IMG/VR virus record: IMGVR_UViG_3300017917_002108
Coordinates: 64,001 to 128,000 of that record
DNA from: a virus
DNA length: 64,000 nt
Strand: one strand, 5' to 3'
The position numbers and the translations under genes were made by a program. This document shows, piece by piece, positions 4,596 to 15,229 of the stretch (positions within the stretch are counted from its first letter, which is position 1; every line of letters begins with the position of its first letter). The notes under the pieces are model-generated. The model made no database searches. It was not told the origin of the DNA and saw only the letters and a program-made list of their open reading frames with translations.

Positions 4596-5438
4596 ATGGA
4601 TTATTATAATATTTTAGGTGTAGCTAAAAACGCTAGTCAGGACGAAATTAAATCAGCCTATCGGAAGATGGCCATGAAGTTTCATCCCGATAGAGGTGGG
4701 GACGAAAAGAAATTCAAAGAAATAGAAGAAGCTTACCGAACACTTAGCGATCCTCAGAAAAAACAGATATTTGATTTAGGCGGTGATCCGAATAATCAAA
4801 ACGGCGGATTTTACAATCAAGGACCGTTCGAGTTCCATTTTGGAACTAACAACATGAATGATGTATTTGGAAACTTTGGTTTTGGAGGACCGTTTGGATT
4901 TGGTGCTAGGCAAAGAAATAAATCGATAAACATCGTAGTAGAACTGACCTTGGAAGAAGTTCTTGTCGGCAAGGATATAGATGCCGAGATATCTATCCCT
5001 GGCGGGAAAAAGAAAATCATTAACATCAGTGTTCCGCCCGGAATAGAGGAAGGACAACAGATTAGATATCAAGGTATGGGAGATAATAGTATCCCTCATA
5101 TTCAACCCGGAGACCTGTTAGTCAATATCCGTATACTACCGCATGCAGAATTTAGGCGAGAAGGATCTAATATTATTTTAGATAAAACAGTGTCTGTATG
5201 GGACGCTATACTCGGCTGTTCTTTGACTATCAAAACTTTAGATCATAAGACTTTACAAATTTCTGTGCCTGCTGGTACACAACCAGAGACTGTACTCAGC
5301 TGTAAAAATGAAGGATTACCATTAATGAGAAATCAAAGACGAGGTAATCTTCTAATTAAAATTAAAGTGGAAATTCCTAAAAATATCGGTCATCAGATGA
5401 AAGCCGCTGTAGAAAAACTAAAGAATAATGATGTATGA
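4596..5438 (+). CDS. dnaJ: DnaJ/CbpA-type co-chaperone (no zinc finger)
   Basis: J domain DYYNILGV...HPD, G/F-rich linker, C-terminal substrate-binding domain (GDLLV, GNLLIKI). Confidence 0.93.
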   Translation: MDYYNILGVAKNASQDEIKSAYRKMAMKFHPDRGGDEKKFKEIEEAYRTLSDPQKKQIFDLGGDPNNQNGGFYNQGPFEFHFGTNNMNDVFGNFGFGGPFGFGARQRNKSINIVVELTLEEVLVGKDIDAEISIPGGKKKIINISVPPGIEEGQQIRYQGMGDNSIPHIQPGDLLVNIRILPHAEFRREGSNIILDKTVSVWDAILGCSLTIKTLDHKTLQISVPAGTQPETVLSCKNEGLPLMRNQRRGNLLIKIKVEIPKNIGHQMKAAVEKLKNNDV

Positions 5439-5461
5439 TCACTTAGATGGTATATGTTTAG

Positions 5462-5491
5462 TTGACAAAGTGAGTCAGCTGGAATTAAACT
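5462..5491 (+). promoter_or_regulatory. sigma70-type promoter for clpA
   Basis: TTGACA-18 nt-TAAACT in the intergenic region. Confidence 0.6.
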
Positions 5492-5522
5492 TAGATATAA
5501 AGAAACTTAGGAAAAAGAAATA

Positions 5523-7862
5523 ATGATAGAACCAAGCTCAAATCTGCAACAAATATTTGATAATGCAGTTGAACATGCGAAAAAATTAAATCACGAATAT
5601 ATCACAATTGAGCATTTAGTATATGCTATAGTCTGTGACGGTCCCTCATTTCAAATCATAGAAAATTATGGAGCAGATGCAAATTTTATCAAGACTAATT
5701 TAGAACATTATATCAGAAATAATTTGAACGACATCAAAGCTTCTGATCCTAATCAGAAGCCAAAAAAGACCAGTTCAGTTGAAAGAGTTCTAAATCGTTG
5801 TTTTACGCAGGTATTGTTCAGTGGTAGGCAACGTATGGAAGTTGCTGATATCATTATCAGTATTCTAAGTGAAAAAAATAGCTTTGGTTTTTACTTCTTA
5901 AGTAAAGGTGGTCTGACCAAAGAAAAATTTATCCAGTATTTCCAAGAAAATCTAGAGATAGAAGAAGAAGAACCGTCTACTCAAATTGCGACTAATTCAC
6001 AGATGGAAAGAATCATTAATCAATTTTGTACCAATCTCAGCCTACTAGCCAAACAACGTAAGATTGATCCAGTCATTGGCAGAGATGAAGAATTAGAAAA
6101 AATTCAATTGATTCTGGCACGTAGAAATAAATGTAATGTTCTAATGGTAGGAGATCCTGGCGTGGGCAAAACTGCCATTGCAGAAGGCCTGGCTCGTAAG
6201 ATCTTTGAAAAGAAAGTTCCTAAGTTCATCCAAGATCATCAAGTCTATACATTAGATATCAGCTCTTTACTGGCAGGTTCTAAGTATCGAGGTGACTTCG
6301 AAGAGAGGATCAAAGCAGTACTAGCATCGTTAGAGAAAAAAGGCAAGATCATATTGTTCATCGATGAAGCACATATGATGCAAGGAGCAGGTGCAGCTAA
6401 TCAAAGCTCAAACGATCTAGCTAACATTCTTAAGCCTATACTGACCAAAGGTATCATAAAACTTATCGCATCAACCACATGGGAAGAATATCGCAAACAT
6501 TTCGAAAGCGATAGAGCATTAATGCGTAGATTCCAACGTGTAACGGTCGATGAACCTAGCCAAGAGATGACTGTTAAAATTATCAAAGGTATTAGAAAAT
6601 ATTATGAAAAACATCATAATGTTAAAATTACCGATGCAGGAATTGATCAAGCAGTAAAGTTATCAATCAAATATATGGCTGATAAAAAATTGCCGGATAA
6701 AGCCATTGATATCATAGACTGTGCCGCGGCTAGATATAAACTCAAAGATGATCCCACCGAAGAAGGCATCGAACAGTTAGTTGACGTTGAACAGGTCACA
6801 TATGAACTCAGCAAAATGATCAACATGCCATTGGAAACTGTGGCTCAGAAAGAAAGTAAAAATCTAACCGGTCTTGAAAAAGGTATGAAGGCTGCTGTAT
6901 ACGGACAAAATGAAGCTGTTGATACCTTGCTTGATAAGATTTTTGTCGCCCAAGCAGGCATGAAGCAACCAAATAAACCCATTGGGTCTTTCCTATTCCT
7001 TGGACCCACAGGCACAGGCAAGACCGAAACTGCTAAGACATTGGCAGATAAGATGGGCATGCAATTGGTAAGATTTGACATGGGAGAATATCAAGAGAAG
7101 CATAGCGTGGCAAGGCTAATCGGTGCGCCTCCCGGATATGTGGGCTATGAAGATAACGCAGGTCAGCTGATTACCAAACTTCAAGAACATCCTAACAGTA
7201 TTATTTTACTAGATGAGATTGAAAAAGCTCATCCAGATGTTAGTAATATTTTATTAGCATTTATGGATAATGGATTTATCACAGGCAGCAATGGAAAACA
7301 GGCAGATGGCAGGAACTGTATCCTCATTATGACATCTAATCTAGGAGCCAGAGACAACGAAAATAATGCCATTGGATTTGGTGATCTAGATAAAGACGGT
7401 GAAGATGACAAAGCGGTCAAGAAATATTTTGCTCCTGAATTCCGCAATCGTTTAGATGCAGTAATTAAATTTGATAAGCTAGGACTAGATGTAGTTATAC
7501 AAATTGTCAATAAATTTATATCAGAATTAAATTCTCAGCTGAAAGATAAAAATATTGAAATCGTATTGACCCATAAGGCTCAAAATTGGTTAGCAGAAAA
7601 AGGCTACGATAAAAAAATGGGTGCAAGACCGTTATCTCGATTGATAGATAATAAGATCAAATCTCCGTTGAGCCGCAGAGTATTGTTTGGAGATCTATCT
7701 AACGGTGGTAAGGTAACTGTTGATATTGAAAATGACGAACCGATATTTGCCGTCGAAGACTATATCAAAACATTGACCAGAGCTGCCAAAAGAAAACTAG
7801 GCATAGTTGATGAAATCCTAGAAGCTAAGACCGATGATATCAAAGAAGAAAATAACCAATAG
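5523..7862 (+). CDS. clpA: ATP-dependent Clp protease ATP-binding subunit, ClpA type
   Basis: Clp N-domain (HEYITIEHL); two AAA+ modules (GDPGVGKT/FIDEAH; GPTGTGKT/LLDEIEKAH); GYVG pore loop; IGF ClpP-docking loop at 7371-7379; no long ClpB middle domain. Confidence 0.92.
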   Translation: MIEPSSNLQQIFDNAVEHAKKLNHEYITIEHLVYAIVCDGPSFQIIENYGADANFIKTNLEHYIRNNLNDIKASDPNQKPKKTSSVERVLNRCFTQVLFSGRQRMEVADIIISILSEKNSFGFYFLSKGGLTKEKFIQYFQENLEIEEEEPSTQIATNSQMERIINQFCTNLSLLAKQRKIDPVIGRDEELEKIQLILARRNKCNVLMVGDPGVGKTAIAEGLARKIFEKKVPKFIQDHQVYTLDISSLLAGSKYRGDFEERIKAVLASLEKKGKIILFIDEAHMMQGAGAANQSSNDLANILKPILTKGIIKLIASTTWEEYRKHFESDRALMRRFQRVTVDEPSQEMTVKIIKGIRKYYEKHHNVKITDAGIDQAVKLSIKYMADKKLPDKAIDIIDCAAARYKLKDDPTEEGIEQLVDVEQVTYELSKMINMPLETVAQKESKNLTGLEKGMKAAVYGQNEAVDTLLDKIFVAQAGMKQPNKPIGSFLFLGPTGTGKTETAKTLADKMGMQLVRFDMGEYQEKHSVARLIGAPPGYVGYEDNAGQLITKLQEHPNSIILLDEIEKAHPDVSNILLAFMDNGFITGSNGKQADGRNCILIMTSNLGARDNENNAIGFGDLDKDGEDDKAVKKYFAPEFRNRLDAVIKFDKLGLDVVIQIVNKFISELNSQLKDKNIEIVLTHKAQNWLAEKGYDKKMGARPLSRLIDNKIKSPLSRRVLFGDLSNGGKVTVDIENDEPIFAVEDYIKTLTRAAKRKLGIVDEILEAKTDDIKEENNQ

Positions 7863-8514
7863 AAAGTTTTACGGTAAATGGTTATATAAAATTACCTTAA
7901 AAATCAATGGTGTGTCTATTATAAGGACGAATTCCTTAGAGGACACCATTGATTTTATGATGAATCCAGAGACACATATATTAAAAAACTATTCTTACAA
8001 CAGACGTTCCTTAGGAAGATCAGAAGAAATCATCAATCTCTGTAGATTCCTACTGCCTTTAGGGCTAGAAGATTACACCAAAAGATTAGAATCCAATCTC
8101 ATAGACATTTACACCAACGACGAAACCATTTATAAAAATGCCTGCTCGTTGTTTTATGATCAAATAGTACATCACTTCGAACCCGAACAAAGTTCAGTTA
8201 ATCTATTATCCAAATCCAATTTCATTGTAGTTAAGAAACTACCGCACGACAAGTTTAGATATAAGGTTTTTCTAACTCCTCATAGGCTCAAACACGATAA
8301 AGAAAAAAAACAACAATTTTTATCTTGGCTAGACACACAAAATGACCGGATAAGAATATCAGGAACAGTAAAAGATTGGTTTATTAGAACTGACTGGAAC
8401 TGGGATCGCAGATATGTGCTCGTCACAGACGAAGCGACTCTGCTGATGATGAAGATGGCTAATCCTGATGCAGTGGGCAAAGTATATGAGCACGTGGTGT
8501 TGATAAATACTTGA
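7834..8514 (+). CDS. hypothetical protein
   Basis: 226-aa ORF overlapping the clpA end. Confidence 0.7.
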   Translation: MISKKKITNRKFYGKWLYKITLKINGVSIIRTNSLEDTIDFMMNPETHILKNYSYNRRSLGRSEEIINLCRFLLPLGLEDYTKRLESNLIDIYTNDETIYKNACSLFYDQIVHHFEPEQSSVNLLSKSNFIVVKKLPHDKFRYKVFLTPHRLKHDKEKKQQFLSWLDTQNDRIRISGTVKDWFIRTDWNWDRRYVLVTDEATLLMMKMANPDAVGKVYEHVVLINT

Positions 8515-8870
8515 TGTCCAACGAAATTCGAACACTACTAGCAAATATCGGTCTAGAATCAGCAGATTCTACATTTGTTTACGGCAATAAAAGTCCAGGA
8601 GCAGGATATCACAAAAGCAATAATTCAATACATACGGTAATTTATCAGGTTTCGGATTTCGTAGGTACTATAAAAATACAGGCTACACTAGCTCTGGATC
8701 CGGCAGATTCGGATTGGTTTGATGTAGATGATACCACGATTGGAATAGGATCAGACAGTTCAGCGTGGACCACTAGTAATACCTTCAATTTTTCAGGTAA
8801 TTTTGTATGGATTCGCGCTGCATATAACATACAAAACGGTTCTATTACCTCGATTACTTATCTAGTCTAA
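8514..8870 (+). CDS. hypothetical, probably virion-associated beta-rich protein
   Basis: ORF directly after GATAAATAC (8502-8510); beta-strand-rich composition. Confidence 0.6.
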   Translation: MSNEIRTLLANIGLESADSTFVYGNKSPGAGYHKSNNSIHTVIYQVSDFVGTIKIQATLALDPADSDWFDVDDTTIGIGSDSSAWTTSNTFNFSGNFVWIRAAYNIQNGSITSITYLV

Positions 8871-8884
8871 GATTTCAAAAGCGA

Positions 8885-8917
8885 TAAATATAGTATCATC
8901 TTACGGAAGATACTATG
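8885..8917 (+). promoter_or_regulatory. late motif TAAATA overlapping a hairpin that occludes the ribosome-binding site and start codon
   Basis: TAAATA at 8885-8890; ATAGTATC (8890-8897) pairs with GATACTAT (8909-8916), enclosing GGAAG and the AT of the start codon. Confidence 0.6.
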
Positions 8918-10354
8918 AGAGACCTATTATCTAAATTAGACGCTATTGTTAGCGAAACAGAATTAAAAGACAAAGAAGATCTTGCTGCTAAACGCAAGGC
9001 CTTACAGGATTTAGAAAACGATCCTGTAGCTACGGAAGATCCGCAAATCAAACAGGCCATTGATCAACGAAAAAATGACCTAGAAAAAGAAGCCAAAATC
9101 AAGGGATTCTCTGAAAGTATTCAATTAGGAGATGAGTTTGGTATAAGTTTTAATGAAGATTTTGAGATAGGTTCATCCGTAGTAGGCTTTGTCAAAGATG
9201 GAATCGTTATAGAACTAGACCAATTCGCATTGGATCTATTAGAAGGACAGGGATTCGATTTCATTGATGGATATCTTAAAGAATCAGAAAAACAAAAAGG
9301 CGTAGACGGTAAAGCCTGCTGGAAAGGCTATAGACGCATGGGCACCAAAAAGAAAGGTGGCAAGACTGTAGACAACTGCGTCAAGGTCAGTGAAGGCTTT
9401 GGTTCTTTAGAAGATGAAGTTATGAAACTTCTAAAAAAGTTCGATGAAGATATGAATGAGATAGGCGGATATGGTGATCCTGATATCAAAGAAATCGTAC
9501 AACATTTAAAAAACGGTGATGCTGAATCAGCAGCTGAAGTAGTATGGTATGCCTACAGCGATCAAGATGGCGGTGAAATTAGAAACATGGAACCGTATGT
9601 CGATGATCTCCAAGCAGAATTTGAAGAACTTGCAGGCGGCGGAGATGAGGATAACGAACCTAGCGGATCATATGATAGTAGCGACGATGCTGATGCTCTG
9701 GCATCAGCAGGACACGGTTCAGACGAAGACTACGGCGATTATGGTTTTGAAGAAGATCATTCAGAAGACCCCAATTCTCCCGAAAACCATTCAGAATATG
9801 ACAACGAAGGCGATATGGCCAAAGACGATCTACGCACCATCAATGATGCTGCACAAGAATTGTATGGCATGCTAGACGTAGATGATAATTTACCGGAGTG
9901 GGTTCAAAGCAAAATCAACAAGGCAGCTGATTATATAGATACTGCCAGAGATTATATGAAATCAAACCATTATGCAGAGGGTAAATATCCTTTTGCAGGA
10001 AAGAAGGTTGGACAAAAAGAAGGGCCAGCAGGACAACTAAAAGGCCGAGACCCGGCAGGATATCCCAAAGGAAAACTTGTAGGTGGCAGTGAAAGTATTG
10101 AGCATGACCTCGACGAAGCAGACTATCAAGGAAGAAAAGTTCAATTAGGCAAGAAGATGTCCGGTGACGTCAAGAAATATAAAGTATATGTACGTAAACC
10201 AAACGGTAATATCGTTAAAGTAAACTTTGGCGATAAGAAAATGCGTATTAAGAAATCTAATCCTGCACGTAGACGCAGTTTCCGTGCAAGACATAACTGT
10301 GCTAATCCGGGACCAAGATGGAAGGCACGTTATTGGAGCTGCAGGAACTGGTAA
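8915..10354 (+). CDS. modular acidic/basic protein, putative internal head (polyprotein) component
   Basis: Short modules (CWKGY...NCVK; EGDMAK...LPEWVQSKI; C-terminal FRARHNC...ARYWSC) separated by hydrophobic-X-E motifs; under a late promoter. Confidence 0.6.
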   Translation: MRDLLSKLDAIVSETELKDKEDLAAKRKALQDLENDPVATEDPQIKQAIDQRKNDLEKEAKIKGFSESIQLGDEFGISFNEDFEIGSSVVGFVKDGIVIELDQFALDLLEGQGFDFIDGYLKESEKQKGVDGKACWKGYRRMGTKKKGGKTVDNCVKVSEGFGSLEDEVMKLLKKFDEDMNEIGGYGDPDIKEIVQHLKNGDAESAAEVVWYAYSDQDGGEIRNMEPYVDDLQAEFEELAGGGDEDNEPSGSYDSSDDADALASAGHGSDEDYGDYGFEEDHSEDPNSPENHSEYDNEGDMAKDDLRTINDAAQELYGMLDVDDNLPEWVQSKINKAADYIDTARDYMKSNHYAEGKYPFAGKKVGQKEGPAGQLKGRDPAGYPKGKLVGGSESIEHDLDEADYQGRKVQLGKKMSGDVKKYKVYVRKPNGNIVKVNFGDKKMRIKKSNPARRRSFRARHNCANPGPRWKARYWSCRNW

Positions 10355-10355
10355 T

Positions 10356-10694
10356 ATGCTACTAAAAGAAATGTTTAGTCCTATAGGGGCTCCTAAATCT
10401 GAGGAAGACGATATCGACTGGTTAGGCGATTTAAAATTTTTCATCGACAACGACAACGAAATGTTGAATAGATATTTTTTTCCTGCTGTCGAAAGACATA
10501 AAAAACATATAGGAAATCCCCATGCCTATAAAATCTACATCAGACCTTTAGAAAGTTGCCTAGAACAATATTGCGAAAAATACGAAGTTGAAGAACCGGA
10601 AACTAAATTTCCCAAAGAAAAAATCATCGAACTAGCAAAAAAAATTGCAGGTCAACAAGATTCTTTCCTAAACAAAGGCGATTATAAAAAATGA
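10356..10694 (+). CDS. hypothetical protein (MLLKEMF start)
   Basis: Start reassigned from 10227 to ATG 10356, just after the upstream stop. Confidence 0.7.
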   Translation: MLLKEMFSPIGAPKSEEDDIDWLGDLKFFIDNDNEMLNRYFFPAVERHKKHIGNPHAYKIYIRPLESCLEQYCEKYEVEEPETKFPKEKIIELAKKIAGQQDSFLNKGDYKK

Positions 10695-11935
10695 AACTGT
10701 TACAGTTATTCGAGGCTGAGACCGGAGGAAAACACATTACTTTCTGTTTTGGAAGATTGAATCCTCCGACTATAGGTCACGAACAACTGCTCGACACCGC
10801 ATCGAAGGTCGGGGGTGACTATAAGATTTTTGTAAGCCAAAGCCAGGATGCGAAAAAAAATCCGTTAGACTATGCAACAAAAATTAAATTTATCAAGTCT
10901 ATGTTTCCTCAACATGCAGCGCATGTGGTCGAAGACACTAGTTTAAATACCATAGTAAAAATTGCATCGTATCTATATGATCTAGGTTATAGAGATGCTA
11001 CCTATGTAGCAGGTAGTGATCGATTAGAAGATATGAAAAAACTTCTAACCCAGTACAATGGTGTAGAAGGTAAGGCACACGGTTATTATAAATTTGAAGT
11101 TCTTGATTTTGTTTCAAGCGGTGAAAGAGAAGATGGTGCTGAAGGTGTTGCTGGTGTCAGTGCATCTGGTGCTAGAGCGGCAGCGGCCAATAATGATCTA
11201 GCAGCATTTCAAGAGGCCACAGGTGCTGGAGATTTGGCTAAACCTTTATTTGATGCGGTACGAAAAGGTATGAAGATAGGAGAAAATATTTCAGAAGCTC
11301 CTATAGAAATGGATCCTGCTGACCCAATGGATCCTATGATCCATAGTCATGATAAGGCCAATCCTGCAAAACTAAAGTATAGGATGTTAAGAGCGGCAGG
11401 ACAGATAAAAGATCTTGCCAGCAGAGTCGACAACGCAAGCCCTAGCGAATGGCAATTAATGACTCGTCAATTTGACGAACTAAAAATGAATGTTGAACAA
11501 ATCCGACATGCTCTAGAAGAATTAGCCAAAGTACGTAAGAAAGGCGGTGTTCGCAGTCGCGGTATAGACAAATTTATCGATAGCGTAGAAGAAGGTTGGA
11601 AAAGTAAAGTGGCCGGTGCTGCATTAGCAGCGGCTAATCTTATTGCTCCTTCTGCTCAAGCAGAGGAACCAGAGAAACCAATTACTATTGCCTATGTTAA
11701 AATTGACGGCGAAGTAAGGAAATATAATTTAGGTGATAGATTCGCCAATGCTAAAGAAGCAGAAGAATTTATCAGCGGAGTATTATCTAAACAAGGCTTA
11801 CAAGGATATCAATTAGATATAAGACACGGATATCCTAAAAAGAAAGAAGTCAAAGAAGGATACGGACGTTATTGGTGCTCAACAGATAAGAAATGGAAAA
11901 CTCGTAAGGGTCCTAAACAGAGTAGAAAATCATGA
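10691..11935 (+). CDS. HIGH-family nucleotidyltransferase (cytidylyltransferase/NMNAT-like) fused to extra C-terminal modules
   Basis: FGRLNPPTIGH (HIGH-like), KNPL, VAGSDR and SAS motifs in the first ~195 aa; unrelated modules follow after ISE, VEE and VKE. Confidence 0.8.
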   Translation: MKLLQLFEAETGGKHITFCFGRLNPPTIGHEQLLDTASKVGGDYKIFVSQSQDAKKNPLDYATKIKFIKSMFPQHAAHVVEDTSLNTIVKIASYLYDLGYRDATYVAGSDRLEDMKKLLTQYNGVEGKAHGYYKFEVLDFVSSGEREDGAEGVAGVSASGARAAAANNDLAAFQEATGAGDLAKPLFDAVRKGMKIGENISEAPIEMDPADPMDPMIHSHDKANPAKLKYRMLRAAGQIKDLASRVDNASPSEWQLMTRQFDELKMNVEQIRHALEELAKVRKKGGVRSRGIDKFIDSVEEGWKSKVAGAALAAANLIAPSAQAEEPEKPITIAYVKIDGEVRKYNLGDRFANAKEAEEFISGVLSKQGLQGYQLDIRHGYPKKKEVKEGYGRYWCSTDKKWKTRKGPKQSRKS

Positions 11936-12729
11936 AAGCAAAAGAATTTATACCAGCAAGCAAGCCGCGTAATTTTGTAGCCAAGAATCAAAAAACTGCA
12001 GGTGCTGGCGCACACCGTGATAAAAAGAAAGAACAAAAGCAAGGCTACGAAAAACATAAAAAGCAAGGTGTGGCGGAAGGCTCAGAAGAGGATAGAGTTT
12101 TTTATGCTGTACAAGACCCTGACAAATCCTATCACATTTATTCAATAACAGGTAACATTACTGATTTAGATGAATTTCAAGGTAAGTTTGGTCGCAAGTT
12201 ATGGATAGAAGGTCCATTGTTTAATGTAGACAAGGCTCACCAAGCAGTTCATATGCATAAACAGAAGCAAGGTGTGGCGGAAGGCTCGGAAAATCTCGTA
12301 GCTGTCATCGATGGCGTGCGTAGCGATAGAACCTACAACGATAAAGACCATGCTCATAATTCACTAGGAAAGTTAGTAGCTTACGGCAAAGCCAAAGTAG
12401 CAGAATTATATATCGATGGCGAAAAAGTAGAACACTTTGAAATAGGTAAAAAATATTTAGATTTCGAACCAAAACAGTTAGAATCAAAGATGGCAGAAAG
12501 AATAAGAGATCCCGAAGACTGGGACGAAGGTAATACAGAACCACCGAATAATTTTGCTGTTTATATCAACGGTAAAAAATGGAAGGTATTTCAAGGCAAC
12601 GGATACTACGCTGACGACGAGCGTGAAATGCGTCAGTATTATAAACTACAAGATTGGGCTCGTAAAAAATCAGAAGCTACCGGTAAGAAGTGGGAAGTAT
12701 CACGCACCGGCGAACCGGCCACAGCATAA
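11932..12729 (+). CDS. modular protein with two KQGVAEGSE repeats
   Basis: 265-aa ORF; repeat visible in both protein and DNA. Confidence 0.75.
   Translation: MKAKEFIPASKPRNFVAKNQKTAGAGAHRDKKKEQKQGYEKHKKQGVAEGSEEDRVFYAVQDPDKSYHIYSITGNITDLDEFQGKFGRKLWIEGPLFNVDKAHQAVHMHKQKQGVAEGSENLVAVIDGVRSDRTYNDKDHAHNSLGKLVAYGKAKVAELYIDGEKVEHFEIGKKYLDFEPKQLESKMAERIRDPEDWDEGNTEPPNNFAVYINGKKWKVFQGNGYYADDEREMRQYYKLQDWARKKSEATGKKWEVSRTGEPATA
12061..12287 (+). repeat. 23-bp perfect direct repeat AAGCAAGGTGTGGCGGAAGGCTC (12061-12083 and 12265-12287)
   Basis: Two identical in-frame copies 204 bp apart; the sequences following each copy are unrelated. Confidence 0.95.
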
Positions 12730-12959
12730 TGGACGAATTAGCACAAATTAAACGTCTAGCCGGTATCAATGAATTTAAAGGCTATCAGCCTTATAATATC
12801 GAACAAGGTAGTAATATTAGTCTAACCGGAAATGAAAAAGGCGAACTAATGAAAAAACACGATATCAGACCAGGAACTCCGGAATGGTTTAAGTTATGGT
12901 TCAGCCTACCCTATCTAACCGGTGAGAAACCTATTGGGAACGATGAATGGTTACGATAA
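12729..12959 (+). CDS. hypothetical protein ([15 protein letters not shown] start)
   Basis: Start reassigned to ATG 12729 (TAATG coupling); [13 protein letters not shown] motif. Confidence 0.7.
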
Positions 12960-13270
12960 GTCCTTCTGCCAAGATAAAAATCACAGATCTTCTAGACGAA
13001 GAAAACAATCCAGATCTAAAATTACGAACATTTGTTCAGGGCGGTGGATGTTCAGGATTTCAATACGGTTTTACTTTCGATAATGAGCAAAATGACGACG
13101 ATTTCGAAATTATATTAGGACGTTGGAAAATATTAGTAGATGCTATGAGCATGCAATATATGACTGGTGCAGAAATAGATTATGTCGAAGATCTGCAGGG
13201 CAGTCAATTTGTTATTAGAAATCCCAACGCACAGACTACCTGTGGCTGCGGCAGCAGTTTTTCAGTATGA
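12947..13270 (+). CDS. erpA: A-type Fe-S cluster carrier ErpA/IscA (HesB family)
   Basis: [17 protein letters not shown] and [14 protein letters not shown] signature motifs. Confidence 0.93.
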
Positions 13271-13476
13271 GAATTAGAGAATTTATTTTAGATCTCAATG
13301 AAAATTTTGCTGACGGTCGTGTCAAAGGCAAAAGTCGTCCGGGTAGAGTAAAGCGTTCCGGTGCTAGCTGTAACGGGTCCGTAACTGATTTACGCAAACG
13401 TGCTAAAAATGCATCAGGAGAACGAGCTAAAATGTATCATTGGTGTGCTAATATGAAAAGCGGGCGCAATAAATAA
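13267..13476 (+). CDS. small basic hypothetical protein
   Basis: [12 protein letters not shown]|NFADG start; coupled to erpA (ATGA). Confidence 0.7.
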
Positions 13477-13480
13477 TACT

Positions 13481-13669
13481 ATGAAAATACGCGAGTTATT
13501 AGAAACAGCCACAGCAGGAGCAACATCTGCGGGCAATGTTTCAGTTGGAGTTGTTTATCCTAATAAGCCCGGAAAACAGCCCAAAAAGAAAAAAGATGGT
13601 ACTGCGCCTAATGCTTTAGATTTACCAGGGGTAAATCTGCTATCTGGCGGTTCTATTGTCAAAAGATAA
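13481..13669 (+). CDS. small hypothetical protein
   Basis: MKIRELLE|TATAGATSAG start; TAAATA 5 nt upstream. Confidence 0.7.
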   Translation: MKIRELLETATAGATSAGNVSVGVVYPNKPGKQPKKKKDGTAPNALDLPGVNLLSGGSIVKR

Positions 13670-13705
13670 ATACAATATGACTCTTTAAGATCAAGGATTT
13701 TTAAC

Positions 13706-14584
13706 ATGGACTTCAAATCATTAATTACTAAAATCAGCGAAATGGACGATAAAATCAATACCATCGCTGCTCCAGAATTACCAAAAGCGGTGCAACTCAA
13801 CGAAGATGCACAACTTCGTGTATTAGCTGGAACTTCAACTATCTTGGAAGAAGCCAAGAAAATGAAGAAAGATGAGAAAAAAGAAGAAAAGGTCGACGAA
13901 GGTCAAGAAGATCTTAAGAAAGTAGGTGATAAGGTCAAGACCCAACACGGTACAATGACTAAAACAGCCACTGGTGTCAAGCACGAACGTTCCTATGGTA
14001 AAGACAAGGACGACGAAGACGATGAGCCAAAATCCAAAAAGAAAGCAAAAAAAGAATCTCTTGATCCTGAACTATTCAAGTCTAAATTCTTAAAAATGGT
14101 TGAAGCTAAAAAATCAGATGCTGATAAGAAAAAAGCTGACAAAAAGAAAAAGATGGACGAAGCTGCTAAACCAGATTTCTTAGATCTAGACAAAGACGGT
14201 AACAAAAAAGAACCAATGAAGTCTGCTGCTAAAGGCAAAGACGGCGAAAAGAAGGACAGCGGCAAGAAAGGCATGAGTGCTGCACAGGAAAAATACTTCG
14301 GCAAGAAAAATGAAAGCAAAATGATGCCGAAAGGTAAAAAGCGTCCTGTCAAAGAAAGTATCGAACAAAAACTTTCTTTCCGTGACATGATGAAATTAGT
14401 AGTCGAAAGCGGTGGACAACAACAGATCGATCCGCTAGACAAAGAATTGTTTGCATGGGCCGAACGTGTTGCTAAGACCAAATTAGGTGAAAATATGAAA
14501 GCTGAAGTCTATGCAGGTATGGTCTACGAACGCATGGGCGGCAGGTTCGAAATGTACGATGTTCTAAGCGAAGATCAAAACTAA
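13706..14584 (+). CDS. Lys/Glu/Asp-rich protein, putative prohead core/scaffold-like
   Basis: Highly charged, with many hydrophobic-X-E motifs (LNE, LEE, VDE, VKE) and an EF-hand-like DLDKDGNKKE; late motif TAAATA at 13667. Confidence 0.55.
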   Translation: MDFKSLITKISEMDDKINTIAAPELPKAVQLNEDAQLRVLAGTSTILEEAKKMKKDEKKEEKVDEGQEDLKKVGDKVKTQHGTMTKTATGVKHERSYGKDKDDEDDEPKSKKKAKKESLDPELFKSKFLKMVEAKKSDADKKKADKKKKMDEAAKPDFLDLDKDGNKKEPMKSAAKGKDGEKKDSGKKGMSAAQEKYFGKKNESKMMPKGKKRPVKESIEQKLSFRDMMKLVVESGGQQQIDPLDKELFAWAERVAKTKLGENMKAEVYAGMVYERMGGRFEMYDVLSEDQN

Positions 14585-14602: not shown

Positions 14603-14634
14603 AAAAGCCAGTCATTAGTTGACTGGCTTTTTTA
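14603..14634 (+). terminator. intrinsic terminator
   Basis: AAAAGCCAGTC-ATTAGTT-GACTGGCTTTT followed by a T-tract. Confidence 0.88.
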
Positions 14635-14647
14635 TTGACTATATAAT
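14619..14647 (+). promoter_or_regulatory. sigma70-type promoter for the replication operon
   Basis: TTGACT-17 nt-TATAAT; SD AAGGAG downstream. Confidence 0.8.
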
Positions 14648-14935: not shown

Positions 14936-15229
14936 ATGATCAATGATTTATTCAGACCAACTCTAGAATGGATTAAAGATGATTGGAACAGTAATCCTGG
15001 GAGGTTTATTGTTGAGCTTGTGGCTTGGGCTATTAGTATCGGTTGTAGCATCACTATGGCCCTTACAGTTCCCAATCCGCCTCTTTTGGTTCTTTATCCT
15101 ATCTGGATTAGCGGCTGTGCCATGTATGCTTGGGCTGCTTATACTAGGCAATCGTTTGGCATGTTGGCTAACTACATCTTGCTAACCACTATAGATAGTA
15201 TAGGGCTAGTAAGGATGATAATTAGTTAA
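14936..15229 (+). CDS. small membrane protein
   Basis: About three hydrophobic helices. Confidence 0.7.
   Translation: MINDLFRPTLEWIKDDWNSNPGRFIVELVAWAISIGCSITMALTVPNPPLLVLYPIWISGCAMYAWAAYTRQSFGMLANYILLTTIDSIGLVRMIIS

Follow-up and report, generated by a model that had tools for sequence, protein, structure and literature searches.

What is the function of nine tightly packed genes of a giant phage, nearly all of which begin with related short leaders and the larger of which encode strings of small modules? The question is raised by positions 8915-14584 of a 64,000-nucleotide stretch of viral DNA (the window), which corresponds to bases 64001-128000 of the 146.6-kb IMG/VR record IMGVR_UViG_3300017917_002108. 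The genes, termed g1 to g9, all lie on the plus strand. An earlier note made from the sequence alone had described them as a late operon of cargo proteins that are packaged, cut after Glu residues and injected with the DNA. Its observation of a cluster of leaders and joints was confirmed and was found to extend to a large uncultured clade. We consider the chances slightly better than even that the region is a late unit encoding precursors of proteins loaded into the prohead, with T4-like tags for loading, processing after Glu, and chained, swappable modules. The estimate is no higher because packaging, cleavage and ejection are all steps that we infer.

CheckV placed the completeness of the record at 41%, which implies a genome of ~350 kb, and the window is part of an uncultured T4-type jumbo phage of that size. 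The T4-type core genes of the record are a family-B DNA polymerase, dsbA and a gp55-like late sigma factor (phrog_12791, E = 3e-82); DnaJ and ClpA are also encoded. The polymerase, located in the window, is nearest to those of Sinorhizobium phage Phosso (50% identity) and Agrobacterium phage Atu_ph07 (45%). Major capsid proteins from related contigs have 65-70% identity to those of Vibrio phage 2.275.O, PA5oct, GAP32 and Phosso, and by sequence the head genes of the clade appear similar to their PA5oct and RaK2 counterparts. A family search for the S77 (gp21-type) prohead protease gave no match in the record itself, which is incomplete and has the head module outside it. We searched 30 related records with the same operon or junction: 11 of the 18 longest encode the protease and none of the 12 shorter fragments does, and a gp23-type capsid protein was present in 5/5 related records examined. 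With its own DnaJ and ClpA, a T4-like core and an aquatic origin, the phage resembles the recently named 'moraphages' (PMC12619734).

Eight of the nine genes begin with a leader, namely g1 (8915), g2 (10356), g3 (10691), g4 (11932), g5 (12729), g7 (13267), g8 (13481) and g9 (13706). The eight leaders quoted in the earlier note, which had stated that most of the genes begin with related short leaders, are all true N-termini, and only g6 is without one. Dozens of IMG/VR contigs carry orthologues in which the leaders are kept. With the predicted cut marked by an arrow, the orthologues read MRDL(L/I)SKLDAI(V/I)(S/N)E↓T for g1, M..xELFE↓A for g3, M.EL..(I/L)K(R/K)LAGI(N/T)E↓F for g5, MRAKEF(V/I)(I/T)E↓NFADG for g7 (for example MRAKEFVIE↓NFADGKVKG) and MKI.(E/D)(I/L).E↓(S/T)A(T/S)AGATS for g8. 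In the window, a tag of ~10 residues ending in hydrophobic-x-Glu is found in g3 (LFE↓A), g5 (INE↓F), g7 (LNE↓N), g8 (LLE↓T) and g1 (VSE↓T, with Val and not Leu or Ile). In T4, cleavage by gp21 occurs after L/I-x-E, and 10 N-terminal residues of IPIII are enough to target a protein to the head (PMC9026906, PMC5694885). The T4 targeting sequence MKTYQEFIAE and the (I/L)-x-E rule, both given in the earlier note, agree with these papers and with the T4 sequences used here for comparison (gp23, ...SFLTE↓AEIGG; gp21, MNEPQLLIE, with LIE near the N-terminus; internal proteins, MKTYQEFIAE). The operon leaders resemble the T4 targeting sequence and the LIE motif of gp21.

Several leaders resemble the termini of head proteins. 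Head modules were fetched from clade genomes, and ten of these and that of PA5oct were readable from portal to capsid protein. The small prohead-core protein of the clade, encoded between portal and protease, begins with MLLNEFFYFNE, MKLLEFFYFND, MILNEFFNKE, MFLREFIYFD or MIINELYEP, and that of PA5oct with MKINDIITE; these N-termini match the leader types of g2, g3 and g7. Among the 167 open reading frames (ORFs) of the record, operon genes account for 4 of the 6 N-termini most like the small core protein (Mann-Whitney p = 0.001). The similarity to gp67-like N-termini was weak (p = 0.017, with no operon gene in the top 7). The clade scaffold protein always ends with (I/L)(K/R)(K/R)LAGL. The N-terminus of g5 (12729-12959, 76 amino acids) mimics this end ([IL][KR][KR]LAGL), and in g5 orthologues the motif occupies residues 7-13 and is followed by I-x-E. 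In the clade capsid protein, ...RK(H/Y)LAE↓NATAGATSAGNVATL precedes a conserved GVQPM. The g8 product (13481-13669, 62 amino acids, isoelectric point (pI) 10) begins with MKIRELLE↓TATAGATSAGNV, which is identical in 13/18 residues to the predicted maturation site of the capsid protein of one clade genome, G008 (BLASTP, E = 2e-5), and which also resembles the N-terminus of T4 gp24, MAKINELLRE↓STTT. The leaders appear to copy termini of genuine head proteins, be it core N-termini, the scaffold C-terminus or the capsid cleavage site. The portal and small core protein of G008 end with ...AAPGL and ...GAPGL, which may be a shared C-terminal motif.

Similar leaders were also seen outside the clade. 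The marine T4-like phages HTVC008M (a pelagiphage) and S-WAM2 (a cyanophage) carry syntenic clusters around cytidyltransferase genes with shared modules and leaders such as MKTFKQLREE and MKTLKELLRK, and MKDFKKLREE occurs among the marine clusters as well; HTVC008M has an ...EIDE↓TATAA boundary. The grammar of leaders and modules may reach the Kyanoviridae, for which virion proteomes exist.

The junction motifs listed in the earlier note (VSEG, YAEG, LDEA, ISEA, VEEG, VKEG, VAEG twice, and VKES) were all found at real module boundaries. The module size given there, 30-90 amino acids, had to be corrected to a range of ~24 to ~200. The pattern hydrophobic-x-E-(small) occurs 28 times in the operon against 11.9 in composition-matched shuffles (2.3-fold), with a density of 1.58 per 100 amino acids compared to 0.67 in the rest of the genome. 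Where the motif is degenerate (YAEG/LDEA, ISEA and VKEG), orthologues read GV(A/S)E(G/A/S) at the same places, and module 1f of g1 is inserted inside a joint that reads EEGVAEGDVDEA in the related locus L041.

In 200 related loci we looked for 23 segments taken from the proteins of the window. The operon backbone was conserved, and module order and content, which the earlier note had proposed to compare across relatives, varied: 1d, 1f, 3c, 3d, 4d, g5 and g6 were gained or lost, and 3c, 1e, 1c, 1b, 1f and 4d shifted position. The invariant order that the earlier note had named as evidence against its reading was not seen. A module that is internal in one phage can be a stand-alone gene consisting of leader and module in another, as for MRIHEFIIEGVAG followed by module 1c, and fusions behind other modules were found in the form of ...ESIKE↓TATAGATS, ...KFDE↓TATPGGTS and ...KVDE↓TELRNK. 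The g8 module is fused after other modules through IKE↓T or FDE↓T in loci L039 and L082. Across distinct contexts the g8 body was preceded by Glu in 25/25 cases, with a hydrophobic residue at P3 (the third residue before the cut) in 25/25, the g5 body (FKGY) by I-x-E in 29/29 orthologue contexts, and module 3c by Glu in 13/13. The FADG of the g7 body was preceded by E-N in 52 contexts, and modules 3b, 3d and 1g behave likewise. Whichever sequence comes before, module starts retain Glu at P1 and a hydrophobic P3, which fits the S77 (gp21-type) protease of the clade.

One of the joints is also conserved at the level of DNA, and neither this nor its association with breakpoints was part of the earlier note. 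Two copies of AAGCAAGGTGTGGCGGAAGGCTC(A/G)GAA, encoding KQGVAEGSE, bracket module 4b in g4 and are the only exact copies in the window. The first copy, AAGCAAGGTGTGGCGGAAGGCTCAGAA, is located at 12061-12087 and the second, identical in 26/27 nucleotides, at 12265-12291, 204 nucleotides downstream on the same plus strand. The 17-mer of this canonical joint is present in at least 120 IMG/VR loci, often as several copies 150-700 nucleotides apart and in frame as QGVAEG, and according to CheckV nearly all contigs carrying the element are fragments of ~350-kb genomes. In 64 copies that had not been selected by the query, Val was encoded by GTG in 81% (background 21%) and Ala by GCG in 80% (background 10%). 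The flanks are unconserved (189 unique contexts), and there are only 2-4 exact copies per genome. Internal translation starts, Shine-Dalgarno-like pausing and Chi-like sites were considered as causes of the DNA fixation and dropped, in view of these flanks and copy numbers.

When loci were compared in pairs at the element, 60 pairs were one-sided, i.e., over 90 nucleotides one flank was at least 70% and up to 98% identical and the other no more than 40%, and a single pair was similar on both sides (two-sided). Control offsets of ±150 and ±240 nucleotides gave 5-13 one-sided and 6-11 two-sided pairs. In alignments the switch in similarity falls inside the element. The canonical joint is fixed even at silent positions and marks razor-sharp recombination breakpoints. 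These are compatible with short-homology recombination; no recombinase-like product was seen among the ORFs listed in the operon, for which no search or domain scan aimed at recombinases was made.

ORFs with the joint carry a leader-type N-terminus in 51% of cases in IMG/VR, compared to 20% for neighbouring ORFs (p = 1e-8), and the leader sometimes runs directly into the joint (MRINEILVEQGVAEG and MRATEFIIEGVAEG). A joint coded in this dual manner would be a protease cut site in the protein, QGVAE↓G, and a dedicated in-frame recombination site of 17-20 nucleotides in the DNA. Together with interchangeable tags copied from scaffold, core and capsid termini, it could allow giant aquatic phages an integron-like assembly, packaging and injection of small effectors, a possibility that we raise tentatively and hold to be rather doubtful. 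We found no description of such a junction system in the literature on GVAEG, on jumbo-phage polyproteins or on propeptides in the RaK2/PA5oct group. In T4 (NC_000866), the sequences encoding MKTYQEFIAE in ipII and ipIII (65689-65718 and 66386-66415) are identical in 30/30 nucleotides, which is a small-scale precedent for fixation of a targeting or processing element at the DNA level.

The genes probably form a late transcription unit. A late-promoter-like GATAAATA is located at 8883-8890 (plus strand), ending 24 nucleotides before the ATG of g1, and a second at 13665-13672 (plus strand), ending 33 nucleotides before that of g9. We used NATAAATA as the working late motif, placed 25 nucleotides upstream of g1 and 34 upstream of g9. 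The sequence ATAAATA is four-fold depleted in the record, with 21 copies compared to ~85 expected, and 17 of the 21 lie at most 40 nucleotides upstream of an ATG on the same strand. The ORFs preceded by it include long ones with tail-fibre-like N-termini in the structural-gene blocks of the record. The exact T4 late-promoter octamer, TATAAATA, does not occur in the window, where 9.6 copies would be expected. Among relatives, the motif was kept ~24 nucleotides upstream of g1 in 28/33 distinct cases and 23-38 nucleotides upstream of g9 in 29/40, and in the relatives compared it was not found upstream of g3, g4 or g7. An intrinsic-terminator-like hairpin (14604-14637, plus strand) with an 11-bp stem and a U-run closes the unit 3' of g9; it was missed by the terminator scan and confirmed by folding (-19.4 kcal/mol, z = -5.46). 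The late-operon claim of the earlier note is supported by this motif evidence: we base it on the late motif at g1 and g9 with its conservation in relatives, on the gp55-like sigma factor and on the terminator after g9.

The record-wide distribution of ATAAATA is almost confined to 5-34 nucleotides upstream of start codons, the commonest form being GATAAATAC. Of the sigma-70-like promoters in the region, the one with the best score (14619-14647, 11/12, TTGACT-17-TATAAT) lies in front of dsbA and overlaps the 3' end of the terminator hairpin (14604-14647), giving a sharp late-to-early boundary.

In the scheme that we favour, each protein would start with a propeptide of the form M(K/R)x(K/R)(E/D)(F/I/L)(I/L)xE, MxLxELFE, ...IKRLAGI(N/T)E or MRDLLSKLDAIVSE, by which it would dock onto the scaffolding core in the same way as the T4 capsid-targeting sequence does. 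The S77 gp21-type prohead protease, present in clade relatives and belonging to the head module outside this record, would then act, and cuts after Glu in hydrophobic-x-Glu would remove the tag and separate the modules at the joints, canonically at QGVAE↓G. The released modules, small and often basic, and at least one enzyme (an HxGH nucleotidyltransferase) would stay in the head and would probably exit with the DNA; as proposed in the earlier note, they may be early-acting effectors. The joints would also be the points in the DNA at which phages of the clade exchange, gain and lose modules in frame.

The cultured relative PA5oct (MK797984) has the same head-module layout as the clade and offers anecdotal support for packaging into virions. 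Detection by electrospray ionization tandem mass spectrometry (ESI-MS/MS) is annotated for its small core protein and gp67-like protein and not for its scaffold, as would be expected if the scaffold is degraded. The 498-amino acid protein EST35_0203 (MFNINDILRLAGV...KVEE↓TASAGASSAGGIA...ISKLAGISNVEE) is annotated as a structural protein detected in virions by mass spectrometry (MS) (PMC7318152). It has ...ILRLAGV at the N-terminus, a mimic of the capsid site (VEE↓TASAGASSAGG) and an internal KLAGISNVEE. The protein shares these motifs with the operon but is an orthologue of no gene in the window, and the GVAEG DNA element is not present in PA5oct. Several other leader-bearing proteins of PA5oct are likewise annotated as MS-detected; the proteins with this annotation include 0235 (RIKKLAGIS), 0205 (MKLFEVFTLYED), 0238 (MKIKDILVE), 0230 and 0237. 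The capsid protein of RaK2 migrates below its predicted mass on gels (PMC3622015), which would be consistent with N-terminal processing in this group.

Several observations weigh against packaging and cleavage. The canonical joint has Val at P3 and not Leu or Ile, and the leaders of g2 (MLLKEMF), g4 (MKAKEFIPA) and g9 (MDFKSLITKI) have no conserved cleavable Glu in this window, although variant g4 orthologues have a cleavable leader such as MRAKEFIIE↓N. The pairwise match between g5 and the scaffold is weak (E = 0.055). The protease and capsid protein of the phage are deduced from its relatives, as the record is without a head module of its own. The operon, situated between DnaJ/ClpA and dsbA/gp43, adjoins replication and chaperone genes and not the head module. 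A crude leader pattern was not enriched among MS-positive PA5oct proteins (4/11 compared to 71/310, p = 0.24), and the MS-positive list includes non-structural enzymes such as ribonucleotide reductase and thymidylate synthase and other likely contaminants. Podoviruses and archaeal spindle viruses have several of the modules as well; they were not checked for a prohead protease, and to our knowledge one of the T4 type is not expected in either.

Much of this could be accommodated if the genes encoded ordinary cytoplasmic multidomain proteins made late in infection, with QGVAEG and its degenerate forms as flexible linkers that double as recombination joints and with neither packaging nor cutting. 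The N-terminal helices would then have another role, e.g., in expression, folding or docking to the neighbouring DnaJ and ClpA. The fixed DNA and sharp breakpoints reveal a function at the nucleic-acid level that could by itself explain the conservation of the joint, and the company of DnaJ, ClpA and dsbA, the modules in phages for which a T4-type protease is not expected (though it was not looked for) and the lack of leader enrichment among PA5oct virion proteins point the same way. However, Glu at P1 and a hydrophobic P3 are also retained at boundaries that have no canonical DNA element, which is a constraint at the peptide level. Leaders are often placed directly before the joint, the precise mimicry of the capsid site and scaffold C-terminus would have no reason in cytoplasmic proteins, and the late promoter motif fits packaging better. 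We regard such cytoplasmic proteins as unlikely.

A role in the head itself, in which the products are accessory prohead-core or scaffold-like proteins that are targeted and cleaved, then degraded and expelled before DNA packaging, and that serve head assembly or size, seems to us quite unlikely. T4 gp22, gp67 and gp68 do share such a fate, being degraded and expelled before the DNA is packaged. The leaders match core N-termini, g5 matches the scaffold C-terminus, and charged, low-complexity sequence makes up g9 and part of g1. Dense cleavage sites are typical of T4 core proteins, which are cut into short fragments (PMC5694885). Against this, the cargo comprises an enzyme domain whose fold is confident and a large variety of small folded modules with rapid exchange between phages, which fits arms-race cargo better, and the PA5oct protein bearing the motifs was found in mature virions. 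Prohead core and scaffold genes (gp22, gp67 and gp68) are further conserved and have their place in the head module, between the genes for portal and capsid protein; the operon lies elsewhere, and the clade head modules contain separate core genes. That leaders and motifs arise by chance in AT-biased genes rich in Lys and Glu is highly improbable. Short motifs do recur in Glu-rich proteins, and the shuffles alone already yield 11.9 of them, but chance does not account for conservation across dozens of relatives, for the significant enrichment and co-occurrence, or for codon-level fixation and breakpoints.

If the proteins are indeed head cargo, their closest parallel would be the T4 internal proteins IPI, IPII, IPIII and Alt (PMC9026906, PMC3012670, PMC5694885). 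The two systems are alike in the M-K-x-x-x-E-F-I-x-E tag ending in hydrophobic-x-Glu, in diverse cargo behind a conserved tag and in an S77 prohead protease, here in clade relatives. Unlike the T4 proteins, the operon chains many cargo units per ORF with internal joints, uses several types of tag, some of which copy scaffold or capsid termini, and has an internal joint whose silent sites are fixed across hundreds of contigs and at which recombination breakpoints fall. The Pfam and PHROG families of IPI, IPII, IPIII and Alt had no match in the operon, and the resemblance is limited to the tag. Operon leaders also resemble the N-termini of the T4 core proteins gp22, gp67 and gp68 and of their PA5oct and RaK2 counterparts. 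The T4 core proteins are cut at multiple Glu sites (PMC5694885); they are conserved, whereas the modules of the operon are highly variable and include enzymes. The ejection proteins of phiKZ and SPN3US (PMC5694885, PMC10052503) are likewise head cargo of giant phages, with propeptides removed after Glu by a gp21-related protease, but they belong to another lineage and are cleaved after A/S/G-x-E, with a different P3, and neither polyproteins of chained modules nor joints conserved in the DNA have been described for them.

The individual genes differ considerably in content. g1 (8915-10354) encodes 479 amino acids with the leader MRDLLSKLDAIVSE↓T and modules 1b, 1c (CWKGY), 1d (acidic), 1e (PEWVQ), 1f and 1g (RRRSFRARHNC...YWSC), its junctions being VSEG, YAEG and LDEA. 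Individual modules of g1 recur, alone or in other contexts, in cyanomyoviruses, pelagiphages (podo- and myoviruses), roseophages, phages of Flavobacterium and Methylophilales, and spindle viruses of Nitrosopumilaceae. In view of this distribution, the modules appear to be general small viral domains that the clade has placed behind head tags, and not intrinsically head proteins. An ESM Atlas search with module 1g found only viral hypothetical proteins. A model of g1 made by AlphaFold2 (AF2) from orthologue alignments had a mean predicted local distance difference test score (pLDDT) of 58.5 and the same linker pattern as that of g3, described below, though less clean. g2 (10356-10694) encodes an acidic protein of 112 amino acids with the leader MLLKEMF, similar to the MLLNEFFYFNE of the small prohead-core protein.

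The 414-amino acid product of g3 (10691-11935) has the leader MKLLQLFE↓A, after which come an HxGH nucleotidyltransferase domain (residues 12-197), module 3b, which is helical, module 3c of the alpha/beta type with a signal-peptide-like segment, and 3d, a YGRYWC tail; its junctions are ISEA, VEEG and VKEG. The N-terminal domain matches Pfam PF01467 (cytidylyltransferase-like) at its cut-off and a PHROG cytidyltransferase with E = 5e-46. In its PPTIGH motif, G29 and H30 are invariant and T27 is nearly so, and the domain has both the (H/T)xGH signature and a Rossmann-like fold. It had no match among PDB sequences, so that only the fold comparison was informative; the best Foldseek matches were NadM NMN adenylyltransferase (NMNAT) and phosphopantetheine adenylyltransferase (PPAT), with a probability of 1.0. 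The domain is an HxGH nucleotidyltransferase of the NMNAT/PPAT/cytidylyltransferase-like type. In the AF2 model from orthologue alignments (mean pLDDT 73) the nucleotidyltransferase domain is confident and there are three more folded units, and pLDDT falls below 50 at residues 8-11, 198-222, 285-305 and 383-391, which are the predicted joints. Orthologues of g3 range from 194 to 498 amino acids with variable strings of modules behind a conserved M..xELFE leader. Residues 302-324 (window 11594-11662) form a signal-peptide- or transmembrane-like segment, GWKSKVAGAALAAANLIAPSAQA, right after the VEE↓G joint (AF2 helix 296-317). In a related locus (L060, 9855-10703) a similar segment is preceded by an MRAHEFVSE leader and followed by a GH19 chitinase/lysozyme-like domain (Pfam E = 8.5e-14), and the sequence of this ORF suggests a tagged, membrane-directed muralytic enzyme.

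g4 (11932-12729, 265 amino acids) starts with the leader MKAKEFI and DUF7230 (Pfam PF23876, first 47 residues), followed by modules 4b, 4c and 4d; 4b had no match and 4c one match among the fetched loci, and both look specific to this genome. g6 (12947-13270), without leader and outside the cargo grammar, encodes an IscA/ErpA-like Fe-S protein (Pfam PF01521, E = 1e-17). Its presence in only some relatives suggests the insertion of an auxiliary metabolic gene in the cargo unit. g7 (13267-13476, 69 amino acids, pI 11) has a leader ending in LNE↓N and then a basic module with two Cys. g9 (13706-14584, 292 amino acids) is rich in Lys, Glu and Asp and has the leader MDFKSLITKISE, of type MDFKSLI.KI. 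Matches to curated families in the operon were confined to the N-domain of g3, the first 47 residues of g4 and g6. Searches of cultured phages with g5 and g8 (tblastn) gave no match, and Pfam found almost nothing in eight long junction polyproteins from IMG/VR, namely LysM, NT5C and DUF6267.

The surroundings of the operon are partly common to PA5oct. The upstream neighbour (8514-8870) is homologous to EST35_0299 (E = 1e-11), an MS-positive structural protein of PA5oct that is likewise encoded after ClpA, and the gene order DnaJ, ClpA and EST35_0299 homologue (window 4596-8870) is shared. The window has an extra ORF of 226 amino acids (7834-8514) between ClpA and this homologue, and in PA5oct a structural protein of 2236 amino acids occupies the place of the cargo operon. 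A 97-amino acid membrane protein (14936-15229) with a weak YwiC-like match adjoins the operon; it starts with MINDLFRP, the top score of all ORFs against the core-protein leader, which is probably due to chance.

The DNA-fixed joint with its exact breakpoints is a clean natural case of in-frame domain shuffling at a defined sequence. If these proteins are indeed packaged and injected, a clade of giant phages that is widespread in freshwater and the sea would deliver fast-evolving small proteins into the host at infection, when anti-defence factors matter most. The grammar of tag, joint and module would then allow the cargo to be read from metagenomes, hundreds of 'hypothetical' mini-domains would become candidate early effectors, and the clade would offer a model from nature for placing selected proteins in phage heads.

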